Assembly: GCF_988243305.1 (NCBI RefSeq)
Contig: NZ_OZ547136.1
DNA length: 64,000 nucleotides
Strand: one strand, 5' to 3'
Made by a program: the position numbers and the translations under genes. The notes under the pieces were generated by a model. That model saw nothing but the letters and a program-made list of their open reading frames with translations, was not told the origin of the DNA and did not search any database. Positions 20,801 through 25,972 of the stretch are shown here, one piece after another; the stretch's first letter is position 1, and each line of letters opens with the position of its first letter.

Positions 20801-21442
20801 TTATTCAAAGAACTGACTTATTTTCGCTTTCAATATATCGATGGCGATGCGGTTTTTCCCGCCGCGCGGCACGATAATGTCCGCATATTGTTTAGAAGGC
20901 TCAATGAATTGCAGGAACATCGGACGCACGGTTTTTTGATATTGCGCCATCACTGAATCCATTGAACGCCCACGCTCGTTAACGTCACGCTTGATGCGGC
21001 GCATCAGGCAGATATCCAGCGGGGTATCAACGAAAATTGAGAAGTTAAGTTCATCACGCAAACGCGCATCCGTTAGCAGCAAAATGCCTTCGAGAATGAT
21101 GACTTTCTTCGGCTCAACCGTCACCGTTTCTTTCATACGCGTATGTTCAACATAGCTGTAAACCGGCAGGTCAATTGCCGAGCCGCGTTTCAACGCTTGT
21201 AAATGCTCAAGCAGCAGGCTGTGATCCATCGCGCTGGGATGGTCGTAGTTGGTCTTAACGCGTTCTTCCATCGACAGATGGCTTTGATCTTTGTAATAGC
21301 AGTCTTCGGGAATTACGCCGATGTGTTCATCACCGACTTGCTCACGTAATTCACGATAAAGGGTACTGGCAATAAGACTCTTGCCGGAAGCCGATGCGCC
21401 AGCGATACCGATAATGACGCACTGATGAGACTGATCAGTCAT
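20801..21442 (-). CDS. udk: Uridine/cytidine kinase
   Basis: Track ORF is 234 aa; trimmed to [22 protein letters not shown]... (213 aa) with Walker A GASASGKS. Confidence 0.92.
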
Positions 21443-21759
21443 ATATTTAGCGACCTGATTAACCTGGATGTTAGGAAGGGGGCGACGAAGCGCCAAACGC
21501 GGCAATTATAGGGATTTCATCCGCCTGATACCAGTCGAATAGCGTTGCCGCGCGCTCAGAGTTAATTGTTGACAAAGAATTCCCGGTGGCAAATTACGTT
21601 GATCAGTTTTATACAAGGTAAAAAATGTTATACGCCGTTGCGCAAATTATCCGCCTTTACGTCACTTTATGAGCAATTCGCATATAAAATGTAAAACTTT
21701 TGTACTAGCATAAACACAGAAACGAATACTGGCGACCTGGTCTTGCGGATAAAGCGGTA

Positions 21760-24700
21760 ATGAGCAAACAATCACAGCATGTATTAATTGCCCTGCCCCA
21801 CCCGCTGCTTCACCTGGTCAGTTTAGGTTTAGTCTCGTTTATCTTTACCCTTTTCTCGCTTGAGCTTTCGCAGTTTGGCACCCAACTCGCCCCACTGTGG
21901 TTCCCGACGTCCATCATGATGGTGGCGTTTTATCGCCATGCCGGGCGTATGTGGCCGGGGATTGCGCTGAGCTGCTCACTGGGAAATATCGCCGCATCCA
22001 TCCTGCTTTTTTCCACCAGCTCGCTGAACATGACCTGGACGACCATCAATATTGTTGAAGCCGTGGTCGGGGCAGTGCTACTGCGTAAATTGCTGCCGTG
22101 GTATAACCCATTGCAAAATCTGGCTGACTGGCTGCGTCTGGCACTCGGCAGCGCCATTGTTCCGCCTCTGTTGGGGGGTGTTCTGGTTATCCTGCTGACG
22201 CCCGGAGACGATCCTCTCAGGGCATTTTTGATATGGGTACTGTCAGAATCCATCGGCGCACTGGCACTGGTGCCACTGGGATTGTTATTTAAACCACACT
22301 ATCTGCTGCGCCATCGCAACCCAAGGTTGCTTTTTGAGTCGCTGCTCACGTTAGCCATCACACTGACGTTAAGCTGGCTTTCGATGCTGTATCTGCCGTG
22401 GCCTTTTACTTTCATTATTGTGCTGTTGATGTGGAGCGCCGTGCGCCTGCCACGAATGGAAGCCTTTTTGATCTTCCTTACCACGGTGATGATGGTGTCA
22501 CTGATGATGGCCGCGGATCCCTCCCTGCTTGCTACGCCGCGTACATACCTGATGAGCCATATGCCGTGGCTACCGTTTTTGCTGATCCTGCTGCCCGCCA
22601 ACATCATGACCATGGTGATGTATGCCTTTCGTGCGGAACGCAAACACATTTCCGAAAGCGAAACCCGCTTTCGGAACGCGATGGAATATTCCGCTATCGG
22701 TATGGCGTTAGTGGGCACCGAGGGACAATGGCTGCAATCCAACAAAGCACTCTGCCAGTTTCTCGGTTACAGTCAGGAAGAGCTGCGCGGACTCACCTTT
22801 CAGCAACTGACCTGGCCGGAGGATCTCAATAAAGATCTGCAACAGGTTGAAAAGCTGATCAGCGGTGAAATAAACACCTATTCAATGGAAAAACGCTACT
22901 ACAACCGCAATGGCGATGTTGTCTGGGCGTTGCTTGCCGTCTCACTGGTGCGCCACACGGATGGCACGCCGCTCTATTTTATCGCTCAGATTGAAGACAT
23001 TAACGAGCTAAAACGCACCGAACAGGTGAATCAGCAACTGATGGAGCGCATCACGCTGGCTAACGAAGCGGGCGGGATTGGCATCTGGGAGTGGGAGCTT
23101 AAGCCGAATATTTTTAGCTGGGATAAGCGGATGTTCGAGCTGTATGAAATTCCTCCGCATATCAAACCGAACTGGCAGGTGTGGTACGAGTGCGTGCTGC
23201 CGGAAGATCGCCAGCATGCCGAAAAAGTGATTCGTGATTCGTTGCAATCACGCTCTCCCTTTAAACTGGAATTTCGCATTACCGTGAAAGACGGCATTCG
23301 CCATATCCGCGCCCTCGCTAACCGGGTACTGAATAAAGAAGGCGAAGTCGAACGCCTGCTCGGCATTAATATGGATATGACCGAGGTAAAACAGCTTAAC
23401 GAGGCATTGTTTCAGGAAAAAGAGCGCCTGCACATTACGCTGGATTCCATCGGCGAAGCCGTGGTCTGTATTGATATGGCAATGAAAATTACCTTTATGA
23501 ATCCGGTGGCGGAGAAGATGAGCGGCTGGACGCAGGAAGAAGCGTTAGGTGTTCCACTCCTGACGGTGTTGCATATTACTTTTGGCGACAACGGACCATT
23601 AATGGAGAACATTTACAGTGCCGACACCTCACGTTCCGCGATTGAACAAGATGTGGTGTTGCACTGCCGAAGCGGCGGCAGCTACGACGTGCATTACAGT
23701 ATTACGCCGTTAAGTACTCTGGACGGCAGCAATATTGGTTCGGTTCTGGTGATTCAGGACGTCACCGAATCGCGCAAAATGCTGCGCCAGCTGAGCTACA
23801 GCGCCTCCCATGATGCACTGACGCATCTCGCCAATCGCGCCAGTTTTGAGAAGCAACTACGCATCCTGCTGCAAACGGTAAACAGTACACATCAGCGACA
23901 TGCACTGGTGTTTATCGATCTTGATCGCTTTAAAGCGGTGAATGACAGCGCCGGGCACGCCGCTGGCGACGCTTTACTGCGCGAACTGGCGTCATTGATG
24001 CTGAGTATGCTGCGCTCCAGCGACGTGCTGGCGCGACTCGGTGGCGATGAATTTGGTCTGCTGCTGCCAGATTGTAATGTCGAAAGTGCGCGTTTTATCG
24101 CTACACGCATTATCAGCGCCGTGAATGACTATCACTTTATCTGGGAAGGACGTGTACATCGGGTAGGTGCCAGTGCCGGGATTACCTTGATTGATGACAA
24201 CAATCATCAGGCGGCTGAAGTGATGTCGCAGGCTGATATCGCCTGTTATGCCTCCAAAAATGGTGGCCGGGGCCGGGTGACGATTTACGAACCGCAGCAA
24301 GCTGCCGCACATAGCGAACGGGCGGCGATGTCGCTTGATGAACAGTGGCGGATGATTAAAGAGAATCAGTTGATGATGATCGCCCACGGTGTCGCTTCGC
24401 CGCGGATCCCGCAAGCGCGTAATTTGTGGCTGATTTCACTTAAGCTCTGGAGTTGCGAAGGCGAGATTATTGATGAACAAACATTTCGTCGTAGCTTCAG
24501 CGATCCGGCACTTAGCCATGCTCTTGACCGACGGGTATTCCACGATTTTTTCCAGCAGGCCGCCAAAGCGGTTGCCAGTAAAGGTATAAGCATCGCCCTC
24601 CCGCTTTCCGTTGCCGGTTTGAGTAGCGCCACGCTGGTGAATGAACTAATTGAGCAGCTGGAAAATAGCCCTCTACCACCACGGTTATTACATCTGATTA

Positions 24701-25077
24701 TTCCGGCAGACGCGATTTTAGATCACGCAGAAAGCGTGCAAAAACTGCGGCTGGCGGGATGTCGGATCGTATTCAGTCAGGTGGGCCGCGATCTGCAAAT
24801 CTTCAACTCGCTGAAAGCGAATATGGCAGATTACCTGCTACTTGATGGTGAGTTATGCGCCAACGTGCAGGGAAATTTGATGGATGAGATGCTGATTACG
24901 ATCATTCAGGGGCACGCTCAGCGGCTCGGGATGAAGACCATCGCCGGGCCAGTAGTTTTACCCCTGGTGATGGATACGCTTTCTGGCATCGGCGTCGATC
25001 TGATTTATGGCGATGTGATTGCCGATGCCCAACCGCTGGATTTGCTGGTGAATAGCAGTTATTTCGCGATTAACTGA
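21760..25077 (+). CDS. dgcE: Diguanylate cyclase: multi-TM sensor, PAS domains, GGDEF domain, degenerate EAL-like C-terminus
   Basis: 1105-aa ORF; polytopic N-terminus; GGDEF motif in RLGGDEFGLLL; no canonical EAL signature seen in the C-terminal domain. Confidence 0.9.
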   Translation: MSKQSQHVLIALPHPLLHLVSLGLVSFIFTLFSLELSQFGTQLAPLWFPTSIMMVAFYRHAGRMWPGIALSCSLGNIAASILLFSTSSLNMTWTTINIVEAVVGAVLLRKLLPWYNPLQNLADWLRLALGSAIVPPLLGGVLVILLTPGDDPLRAFLIWVLSESIGALALVPLGLLFKPHYLLRHRNPRLLFESLLTLAITLTLSWLSMLYLPWPFTFIIVLLMWSAVRLPRMEAFLIFLTTVMMVSLMMAADPSLLATPRTYLMSHMPWLPFLLILLPANIMTMVMYAFRAERKHISESETRFRNAMEYSAIGMALVGTEGQWLQSNKALCQFLGYSQEELRGLTFQQLTWPEDLNKDLQQVEKLISGEINTYSMEKRYYNRNGDVVWALLAVSLVRHTDGTPLYFIAQIEDINELKRTEQVNQQLMERITLANEAGGIGIWEWELKPNIFSWDKRMFELYEIPPHIKPNWQVWYECVLPEDRQHAEKVIRDSLQSRSPFKLEFRITVKDGIRHIRALANRVLNKEGEVERLLGINMDMTEVKQLNEALFQEKERLHITLDSIGEAVVCIDMAMKITFMNPVAEKMSGWTQEEALGVPLLTVLHITFGDNGPLMENIYSADTSRSAIEQDVVLHCRSGGSYDVHYSITPLSTLDGSNIGSVLVIQDVTESRKMLRQLSYSASHDALTHLANRASFEKQLRILLQTVNSTHQRHALVFIDLDRFKAVNDSAGHAAGDALLRELASLMLSMLRSSDVLARLGGDEFGLLLPDCNVESARFIATRIISAVNDYHFIWEGRVHRVGASAGITLIDDNNHQAAEVMSQADIACYASKNGGRGRVTIYEPQQAAAHSERAAMSLDEQWRMIKENQLMMIAHGVASPRIPQARNLWLISLKLWSCEGEIIDEQTFRRSFSDPALSHALDRRVFHDFFQQAAKAVASKGISIALPLSVAGLSSATLVNELIEQLENSPLPPRLLHLIIPADAILDHAESVQKLRLAGCRIVFSQVGRDLQIFNSLKANMADYLLLDGELCANVQGNLMDEMLITIIQGHAQRLGMKTIAGPVVLPLVMDTLSGIGVDLIYGDVIADAQPLDLLVNSSYFAIN

Positions 25078-25091
25078 GGCGTGCTTCCCCA

Positions 25092-25125
25092 TCGCCTGAT
25101 GCGGCGTATCAGGCCTACAATTCGT
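25092..25125. terminator. REP-like palindrome between convergent dgcE and alkA, probable bidirectional terminator
   Basis: cgcctgatgcggcgtatcaggcc hairpin immediately after the dgcE stop; overlaps the alkA 3' end. Confidence 0.5.
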
Positions 25126-25972
25126 CCGTTCCGTCTGGTTGCCAGCCTTCCGTATACCAGATATGCAACAGCGCATAAGAACGCCAGGGCTTCCAGCGTT
25201 CGGCATAACGGCGGATTTGTGCCGGTGTCATTCCCGGAAATCGCTGTTTAATCAGATAATCATCCGGCAGGAAAACATCTTTCGCCTGCCAGCCACGTAA
25301 GGCGAAATAATTCGCCGTCCAGCGCCCGATACCCGGAAAAGTTTGCAGCGTTTTCATCGCTTGCTCTACGTCGCCCGGAAATGTCATTGGTAAGGTGCCC
25401 TCCAGCGCCGCATTTGCCAGATGAATCAGTGCCTCTGCCCGTTTCAACGGCATACCTAACGCTTTTAATGCCTGCGGGTCGGCTGCAGCCAGCCGCTGAG
25501 GCGTGGGGAAGCAGACATAATCCGGAAAATCATCCAGCCGTTCGCCATAAAGCTGTGCCACTCTGGCGGTCAATTTTGCCGCCATCGCCACGCTCACCAG
25601 TTGGCCTAAAATCGCCCGCACGCCCTGCTCAAAAGCATCAACACTGCCGGGTAAACGCAATCCGGGCCGCGCCGCGCCTAACTTGCCCAACGCACCGTTA
25701 ACAATCTGCGGGTTACATTGCAGATCAAACAGGCGGCTCATTTTCGCCAGACACTCTGCGGCAACAGGTTCTAAACCTGCACTTAAATTTATGTGCAGAG
25801 TATGGCGGGCTATATCCGGAATAGCAGTCACCACGCCGCGATATTCGCCCACCGCCAGACTACGGGCATAATAATCGTCAGCGACCGTTTCCACACCGTT
25901 CACCGCACGGGCGGCGAGAAATCCCAACATCCACGACCAGTCATACGGCGGCTGCCAGTTCAGGGTATACAT
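25115..25972 (-). CDS. alkA: 3-methyladenine DNA glycosylase II
   Basis: 285-aa ORF MYTLNWQPPYDWSWMLGFLAARAV...; HhH-GPD fold signature. Confidence 0.95.
   Translation of the reverse strand: MYTLNWQPPYDWSWMLGFLAARAVNGVETVADDYYARSLAVGEYRGVVTAIPDIARHTLHINLSAGLEPVAAECLAKMSRLFDLQCNPQIVNGALGKLGAARPGLRLPGSVDAFEQGVRAILGQLVSVAMAAKLTARVAQLYGERLDDFPDYVCFPTPQRLAAADPQALKALGMPLKRAEALIHLANAALEGTLPMTFPGDVEQAMKTLQTFPGIGRWTANYFALRGWQAKDVFLPDDYLIKQRFPGMTPAQIRRYAERWKPWRSYALLHIWYTEGWQPDGTDEL

Follow-up and report, generated by a model that had tools for sequence, protein, structure and literature searches.

A degenerate EAL-like domain, very probably kept as an autoinhibitory module, at the C terminus of the diguanylate cyclase DgcE

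Introduction

In EAL phosphodiesterases, the glutamate of the EAL motif, a conserved asparagine and a pair of aspartates (DD) act as metal ligands, the arginine of the motif contacts phosphate, and the lysine of a KxD motif is catalytic. The E-x-T-E motif serves as both a metal ligand and a loop anchor, the EGVE motif supplies a glutamate that acts as general base or at the metal site, and the glutamine of a QG pair is also conserved. Some EAL folds, such as RflP (YdiV), BluF (YcgF) and CsrD of E. coli, lack both the binding and the cleavage of c-di-GMP and work by contacting other proteins. These three proteins are listed as degenerate (PMC5635695).

The closest described system is DgcE (YegE) of E. 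coli K-12, which acts at the top level to trigger formation of the curli and cellulose matrix. Its C-terminal domain, EALdeg, was described by Pfiffer, Sarenko, Possling and Hengge in 2019 as an EAL domain in which every key residue is missing, and both its catalytic inactivity and its loss of c-di-GMP binding were argued from those residues (PMC6510439). EALdeg forms dimers and is inhibitory to the output of DgcE. It also works against DgcE oligomers, which accumulate in a variant deleted for the EAL domain; this variant is more stable as well (PMC6510439). The action of RdcA and RdcB is independent of EALdeg, and the proteolysis of DgcE begins at the N-terminus (PMC6510439).

Here we describe the dgcE gene found within a window of 64,000 nucleotides, the whole stretch of DNA analysed (contig NZ_OZ547136.1 of assembly GCF_988243305.1). 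The reading of its C-terminal domain as a degenerate EAL domain is correct and has already been published. Our additions to the literature are small: the degenerate state is shared with the DgcE-type relatives sampled from nine other Enterobacterales genera, proteins of the same architecture outside the Enterobacterales retain an intact EAL, and the clade has replacement motifs of its own together with a conserved C-terminal tail.

Identity of the locus

The gene is a single reading frame in the open reading frame listing of the window.

21760-25077, plus strand: dgcE (yegE) coding sequence, 1105 amino acids plus stop

This frame is 99.9% identical to annotated dgcE, a gene found in 5400 of 5426 complete E. 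coli genomes, with the full-length reading frame kept in the same proportion (5400/5426). The protein scores 2068 bits on the NCBIfam equivalog NF007298, the DgcE/YegE orthologue group, whose cut-off is 1135, and residues 1-1105 are covered. The gene is flanked by udk, dcd and asmA on one side and by alkA and yegD on the other, and the order asmA-dcd-udk, dgcE, alkA-yegD agrees with K-12 synteny. The score above cut-off, the full length and the conserved synteny together place the protein in the DgcE group. It is the same gene as K-12 dgcE (b2067), with like neighbours, 97.0% nucleotide identity and 13 differences in 1105 amino acids. A scan of the dgcE-alkA junction for a terminator and a promoter found neither. 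Antisense open reading frames within dgcE, such as one of 140 amino acids on the minus strand at 23992-24414, are taken as chance frames in a conserved coding gene.

Domain organization and the cyclase

The protein harbors a membrane domain, three PAS domains, a GGDEF domain and the EAL-like domain, an architecture (MASE1-PAS3-GGDEF-EALdeg) that it has in common with K-12 DgcE.

21814-22641, plus strand: MASE1 membrane domain, residues 19-294 (Pfam PF05231, E 1e-35)
22654-23784, plus strand: three PAS domains, residues 299-675 (Pfam PAS, PAS_3, PAS_4 and PAS_9; TIGR00229 in three stretches)
23803-24273, plus strand: GGDEF diguanylate cyclase domain, residues 682-838 (Pfam PF00990, E 1.1e-45, profile positions 1-160 of 161)
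24013-24024, plus strand: RxxD inhibitory I-site, RSSD, residues 752-755, five residues upstream of GGDEF
24040-24054, plus strand: GGDEF active-site motif, intact, residues 761-765
24301-25074, plus strand: degenerate EAL domain (EALdeg), residues 848-1105 (Pfam PF00563, custom profile, AlphaFold and Foldseek)

The original prediction had described an active cyclase with an intact GGDEF motif, and this description holds. The string RLGGDEFGLLL is encoded at 24034-24066, the GG(D/E)EF motif is intact, the domain is full length and the RxxD I-site is in place, as it also is in the list given for Shigella dgcE (PMC11327459). The genetics of K-12 agree, as the output of DgcE in vivo needs the GGDEF motif (PMC6510439).

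The EAL fold

The region said originally to hold the EAL-like domain, 24300-25077, covers residues 848-1105 and the stop codon, and both sequence profiles and a predicted structure support the assignment. The Pfam EAL profile (PF00563) scores 72.8 bits over residues 898-1088, above its gathering score of 31.3, whereas intact relatives score about 210 bits. Of the 236 profile positions this match takes in only 39-234, and thus leaves out the N-terminal part of the profile, with the EAL motif. A custom profile built from 19 canonical EAL domains gives 106.7 bits over residues 862-1099. An AlphaFold (AF2) model of EALdeg is confident (pLDDT 87.1, pTM 0.85), with alternating strands and helices, and the top 50 Foldseek matches to it are all EAL domains, with E values of 4e-13 and weaker. 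The model superposes on solved EAL domains over about 250 residues with TM scores of 0.75-0.81, its partners being RocR (3SY8), TBD1265 (2R6O and 3N3T), LapD (3PJT) and FimX. A sequence search of the PDB returned no structure of DgcE. As modelled, this region (residues 848-1105) is a genuine EAL-fold domain that retains the (beta/alpha)-barrel.

Signature positions of EALdeg

The positions compared were chosen as follows. The role of the DDFGTG loop, which binds metal, was taken from PMC5301497; the other positions came from motifs visibly conserved in the 19 canonical EAL domains and from studies of RocR and TBD1265. The 19-EAL profile, a 16-sequence MAFFT alignment and pairwise HMMER alignments to RbdA and FimX all agree on the loss of residues. 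A three-sequence MAFFT alignment of DgcE with PdeH and PdeL had too many gaps near the EAL motif for the register to be settled and was replaced by the 16-sequence and profile alignments. Except for the first, which rests on the profile and the FimX pairwise alignment, the following assignments come from the alignments generally.

24430-24444, plus strand: LISLK, residues 891-895, at the E-x-L-x-R position (Glu to Leu, Arg to Lys)
24601-24603, plus strand: P948 at the position of the metal-binding Asn
24697-24708, plus strand: IIPA, residues 980-983, at the E-x-T-E position (ExxE to I980/A983)
24775-24780, plus strand: S1006-Q1007 at the DD of the DDFGTG loop (local sequence S1006-Q1007-V-G-R-D)
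24838-24840, plus strand: L1027 at the catalytic Lys (KxD) position
24946-24957, plus strand: GPVV, residues 1063-1066, at the E-G-V-E position
25006-25008, plus strand: Y1083 at the position of the conserved Gln (QG)

None of the 11 catalytic, metal-binding or substrate-binding positions checked is retained. The register of the EAL motif is the sole uncertainty in the alignment and varies by up to two residues among methods: the glutamate position falls on L891 in the profile or on I892/S893 in MAFFT, and the arginine position on K895 or L896, respectively. As no glutamate lies between R887 and E900, the catalytic residue is restored in no register. The strings E-A-L-x-R, E.L.R, DDFG and EGVE occur nowhere in the whole DgcE protein. 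The C-terminal domain has just two E.L triplets, EQL965 and EML1043, and neither lies at the motif position. The substrate contacts of the FimX and LapD type (Q of YQP, ExLxR, Asn, loop D and EGVE) are likewise absent, with H876, L891, K895, P948, S1006 and G1063 in their places.

The metal ligands, the general-base glutamate, the catalytic lysine and the substrate-contacting arginine, glutamine and asparagine are thus all replaced, while the ability to self-associate is retained. The original claim that the domain has no recognisable E-A-L-x-R and is degenerate is therefore borne out by profile alignment to the EAL family, in which LISLK stands at the motif position and the catalytic glutamate and metal-binding residues are replaced. 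The contrary case, of catalytic residues conserved in a diverged motif context, was looked for by alignment and not found. On these residues, EALdeg would almost certainly no longer bind c-di-GMP. Each substitution at a catalytic position is identical in K-12 DgcE, and the nine amino acid differences between the two strains within EALdeg (L874I, E885Q, E929D, S946A, D962E, L964I, E984D, L1005F and E1085D) are conservative, none being at a signature position.

Conservation and selection

The same substitutions are found in MASE1-PAS-GGDEF-EAL proteins of nine other Enterobacterales genera: Erwinia, Mixta, Duffyella, Hafnia, Ewingella, Shimwellia, Yersinia, Sodalis and Edwardsiella. Among the DgcE-type proteins compared, the asparagine position is occupied by proline and rarely by alanine or leucine, and the GP of GPVV is invariant in the nine full-length ones. 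The alignment of relatives also reveals a conserved extreme C terminus.

25033-25074, plus strand: conserved extreme C-terminal tail, PLDLLVNSSYFAIN

In relatives with as little as 32% identity (Erwinia, Mixta, Duffyella, Hafnia, Ewingella and Shimwellia), the last residues before the stop are likewise (Y/F)F(A/G)I(N/K/H).

In contrast, a protein of Microbulbifer aggregans (WP_226662686, P0091) with the same domain order, a similar length and about 30% identity in the EAL domain keeps every signature motif (ELLVR, N, EITE, DDFG, K, EFVE and QG), and scores 215 bits against the Pfam EAL profile where DgcE scores 72.8. The degeneration is old: it is shared across the DgcE-like proteins of the Enterobacterales, while Microbulbifer, with the same architecture, keeps an intact EAL. 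A word-indexed protein search brought up fragments and close orthologues for the most part, with no intact-EAL relative among them, and it took an exhaustive HMMER search to find the boundary of the degenerate clade.

EALdeg is under purifying selection, with a dN/dS of about 0.1. Against Salmonella the ratio is 0.10 for residues 898-1105 and 0.095 for the GGDEF part, values that are only approximate because dS is saturated (1.5-2.0). Against K-12 it is 0.129 for EALdeg and 0.026 or less elsewhere in DgcE, and EALdeg holds nine of the 13 amino acid differences between the two proteins, from which it follows that constraint is weaker on EALdeg than on the rest of the protein.

Function and alternative explanations

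EALdeg is very probably a non-catalytic EAL-fold domain, with its binding of c-di-GMP almost certainly lost, that has been kept as an autoinhibitory module. The regulatory role originally suggested for it accords with K-12, where deletion of EALdeg raises CsgD, curli and cellulose output (PMC6510439). In the published model, dimerisation of EALdeg would sterically oppose productive oligomerisation of the PAS3-GGDEF part; the GGDEF domains would thereby be held monomeric and inactive, and DgcE would be left more open to proteolysis. Binding of RdcA and RdcB to the MASE1 domain would override the brake. The steric, anti-oligomerisation mechanism itself is inferred.

It is possible, if rather doubtful, that EALdeg is mainly a docking surface for PdeR, DgcM, other phosphodiesterases of the c-di-GMP 'supermodule' or a protease adaptor, and not a self-acting steric brake, with a partner site made up of the GP that replaces EG, the FGR(N/D) loop and the C-terminal YFAIN tail. 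DgcE is indeed a two-hybrid interaction hub that touches PdeR, DgcM and several phosphodiesterases (PMC5635695), the clade-specific motifs and a tail conserved to its last residue suggest selection beyond the fold, and the protein without its EAL domain is more stable (PMC6510439). However, a partner specific to EALdeg has not been reported, RdcA and RdcB do not need EALdeg for their action, and the N-terminus is where proteolysis sets in (PMC6510439). Docking is compatible with an autoinhibitory brake and does not exclude it. Domain-level interaction data for the EAL domain of DgcE were looked for in the two-hybrid study and not found (PMC5635695). A related proposal, which we consider improbable, is that the DgcE-type EALdeg forms a distinct, Enterobacterales-wide subfamily with a new conserved site whose ligand or partner would set DgcE activity or turnover. 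The elements of such a site are GP for the EG of EGVE, Pro for Asn, FGR(N/D) for DDFGTG and the ...YF(A/G)I(N/K/H) tail.

That EALdeg is a receptor of the FimX/LapD type for c-di-GMP, pGpG or another nucleotide, exerting product feedback on the adjacent cyclase, is very unlikely. The receptor domains of FimX and LapD are among the best sequence and fold matches, and the arginine of EALxR is replaced conservatively by Lys895 in the profile register, but the active proteins RbdA, RocR and TBD1265 match equally well, and FimX ranks high largely because its EAL domain and that of DgcE are both degenerate. Moreover, the EAL Glu, Asn, DD loop, EGVE and Gln have become L, P, S/Q, G/P/V and Y, which are non-polar or structurally different, the Q of YQP has become H876, the binding residues are stated to be lost (PMC6510439), and the intact RxxD I-site already supplies product feedback. 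That the domain still has some phosphodiesterase activity by way of a diverged active site, so that DgcE would be bifunctional, is hardly credible. The predicted fold is intact, and beyond the Enterobacterales both domains are intact in proteins of this architecture, but all four acidic metal ligands are absent in every register, as are the asparagine, the lysine and the general-base glutamate. Deletion of the domain and loss of a phosphodiesterase would look alike phenotypically, but the authors of the deletion exclude the latter on residue grounds (PMC6510439). Finally, non-synonymous change in EALdeg among E. coli lineages is 5-10 times that of the other DgcE domains, as might be expected of a functionless remnant in decay. 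This reading, to which we give almost no credence, is refuted by selection (dN/dS about 0.1, with the frame kept in 5400 of 5426 genomes), by conservation across the Enterobacterales families sampled, by the confident predicted fold and by the phenotype of the domain deletion (PMC6510439).

With its EAL domain as a non-catalytic brake, DgcE is to be annotated as a cyclase and not as a bifunctional diguanylate cyclase/phosphodiesterase. Such a brake also bears on models of local c-di-GMP signalling.

Comparison with known systems

The EALdeg of DgcE resembles FimX and LapD (PDB 3HV8, 4FOK and 3PJT) in that an EAL fold without phosphodiesterase activity lies C-terminal to a GGDEF domain and is regulatory. 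However, FimX and LapD keep their substrate-binding residues, bind c-di-GMP and have a degenerate GGDEF, whereas in DgcE the binding residues are lost and the GGDEF is active; FimX has E-V-L-L-R where DgcE has L-I-S-L-K. RflP, BluF and CsrD differ in another respect, as they act in trans, on FlhDC, BluR and RNase E substrates, whereas EALdeg would act in cis, on its own cyclase.

Identity and domain organization of DgcE

The open reading frame at 21760-25077 is the E. coli dgcE (yegE) gene. It is 99.9% identical by megablast to sequence annotated as 'dgcE: diguanylate cyclase', and megablast finds the gene at a coverage of at least 80% in 5400 of 5426 complete E. coli genomes. The encoded protein, which RefSeq names simply 'diguanylate cyclase', is matched over its full length by the NCBIfam equivalog NF007298 (2068 bits; cut-off, 1135). 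Upstream lie asmA, dcd and udk (minus strand) and downstream alkA and yegD, neighbors that are identical in kind to those of K-12 dgcE (b2067), with which the gene shares 97.0% nucleotide identity. A 234-residue udk frame from a TTG start (20801-21505, minus strand) was dismissed as an artefact of the longest-ORF rule; K-12 udk is annotated at 642 nt and 213 aa.

Features of dgcE and its product
21760-25077, plus strand: dgcE (yegE) ORF, 1105 codons (ORF listing)
aa 19-294, plus strand: MASE1 (Pfam)
within DgcE, plus strand: three PAS domains (Pfam)
aa 682-838, plus strand: GGDEF, full profile, E 1e-45 (Pfam)
24034-24066, plus strand: RLGGDEFGLLL (DgcE translation)
aa 752-755, plus strand: RxxD I-site (RSSD), five residues upstream of GGDEF (DgcE sequence)
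aa 898-1088, plus strand: EAL, 72.8 bits, matched only over profile positions 39-234 of 236 (Pfam)

The spacer between dgcE and alkA (25078-25114) is 37 bp long, against 108 bp in K-12, and contains one palindromic REP-like unit (GCCTGATGCGGCGTATCAGGC) where K-12 appears to hold two. This repeat polymorphism alters the C-terminus of AlkA: the frame at 25115-25972 (minus strand) encodes 285 aa ending in QPDGTDEL, against 282 aa ending in QPDEA in K-12.

A degenerate domain with an EAL fold

The original prediction placed an EAL-like domain without a recognizable signature at 24300-25077, corresponding to residues 848-1105 and the stop codon, and described the GGDEF motif as intact, as indeed it is. 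A string search of this C-terminal domain (EALdeg) returned no EAL, E.L.R, DDFG or EGVE. Nineteen canonical EAL domains, from E. coli PdeR, PdeL and PdeH and 16 intact relatives, served to build an HMM. Its alignment spans residues 862-1099, scores 106.7 bits and is interrupted once, by a four-residue gap following the ExxE position; the motifs themselves are free of gaps.

Signature positions in DgcE (canonical-EAL HMM alignment)
Q of YQP: H876
E-x-L-x-R: L891-I-S-L-K895
Asn: P948 (24601-24603)
E-x-T-E: I980-I-P-A983
D-D-F-G-T-G: S1006-Q-V-G-R-D
K-x-D: L1027-L-D
E-G-V-E: G1063-P-V-V1066
Q-G: Y1083-G

From the Asn position onward the same residues are found by pairwise HMMER (RbdA, FimX) and by MAFFT (orthologues, E. 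coli PDEs), and the methods disagree only on the register of the EAL motif, by 1-2 residues. There is no Glu between R887 and E900, and hence no register restores the catalytic Glu. The profile alignment thus does not reveal catalytic residues conserved in a diverged context, the outcome that the original prediction had named as its refutation, and the reported absence of the signature stands.

The domain is still an EAL domain, with the EAL fold in its modeled structure. The AlphaFold2 model (16-sequence alignment) has a pLDDT of 87.1 and a pTM of 0.85, with strands alternating with helices, including strands at 871-880 and 889-897 in the stretch outside the Pfam match. The best 50 Foldseek matches in the PDB are all EAL domains, aligned over about 230-260 columns with TM scores of 0.75-0.81, and they encompass active enzymes (RocR 3SY8, TBD1265 2R6O/3N3T, RbdA 5XGB, MorA and MucR) as well as the degenerate receptors FimX and LapD.

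Evolution of the degenerate state

To collect relatives, HMMER was run exhaustively against 1.84 billion cluster representatives, and a column read-out followed. The nearest full-length relatives (26-43% identity, 975-1118 aa) all have the MASE1-PAS-GGDEF-EAL architecture, and all show degeneration at the positions affected in DgcE. The genera represented are Erwinia, Mixta, Duffyella, Hafnia/Obesumbacterium, Ewingella, Shimwellia, Yersinia, Sodalis and Edwardsiella. RxxD-GGDEF is intact in these relatives except in the Duffyella protein P0070, where the I-site Arg is His. Below about 30% identity the matches change to canonical EALs with every motif. Proteins of MASE1-PAS-GGDEF-EAL architecture are among them, for example P0091 of Microbulbifer aggregans (EAL domain, 215 bits on Pfam). 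Taken together, the degenerate Enterobacterales relatives and the intact EALs of like architecture elsewhere make it most likely that the protein at first combined two enzymes, that its EAL domain lost activity at an early point in the Enterobacterales lineage, and that the domain has been retained since.

Among nine full-length relatives examined, the 'GP' replacing EG of EGVE (G1063-P1064, 24946-24951) is invariant, and the metal-binding Asn position (P948) is Pro, sometimes Ala, in seven. That these replacements are themselves conserved points to a new local structure under selection and not to drift. The extreme C-terminus, PLDLLVNSSYFAIN (aa 1092-1105, 25033-25074), is conserved through the last residue; the ending (Y/F)F(A/G)I(N/K/H)-stop is kept in DgcE-type proteins at identities as low as 32%, in Erwinia, Mixta, Duffyella, Hafnia, Ewingella and Shimwellia, and is absent from canonical EAL relatives.

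Against a syntenic Salmonella enterica orthologue, with dS saturated, dN/dS is 0.10 for residues 898-1105 and a similar 0.095 for the adjoining GGDEF part. Against K-12 (L006:3267-6584), dN/dS is 0.129 for EALdeg and 0.012-0.026 for MASE1, PAS and GGDEF; of the 13 amino-acid differences, nine lie in EALdeg (24301-25074), which makes up 23% of the length, and each of the nine is a conservative change outside the signature positions. Judged by these substitution patterns, the domain is not decaying, and its constraint is real, if looser than on the remainder of DgcE.

Truncated DgcE fragments (P0001 and P0002) also exist in public databases. One of them, 296 aa long and listed for Shigella sonnei as a 'putative sensor protein', is the EALdeg region alone; another, a 427-aa product, fuses a transposase-associated domain (PF13737) to EALdeg. 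Both fit the disruption of dgcE by IS elements and nonsense mutations reported in Shigella (PMC11327459).

Function of EALdeg

Pfiffer et al. (2019, PMC6510439) described EALdeg as devoid of all key residues. They found that its deletion increases matrix production, CsgD and csgB::lacZ expression, that SDS-resistant oligomers accumulate and the protein level rises in the deletion variant, and that the isolated domain dimerizes in a two-hybrid assay. Activation by RdcA/RdcB does not depend on it. In their model EALdeg disturbs productive PAS3-GGDEF oligomerization, which would inhibit DgcE output. The inhibitory phenotype and dimerization are demonstrated in that work, and the steric mechanism is their proposed interpretation. 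We adopt this model as, very probably, the best explanation. A partner-docking surface, compatible with the model, is a possible but rather doubtful role. A nucleotide receptor like FimX, itself among the structural matches, is very unlikely. Residual phosphodiesterase activity, in a domain altered at each motif listed, is barely credible, and a functionless remnant, set beside the constraint on the domain, is equally so. The residue losses, the fold and the published phenotypes together support the original reading of a degenerate, probably regulatory domain on an active cyclase.

That DgcE carries a degenerate EAL domain is already known and agrees with its textbook description. What this analysis adds is minor: the degenerate state is conserved order-wide, proteins of the same architecture outside the Enterobacterales have an intact EAL, and DgcE-type proteins possess replacement motifs specific to their clade as well as a conserved C-terminal tail.
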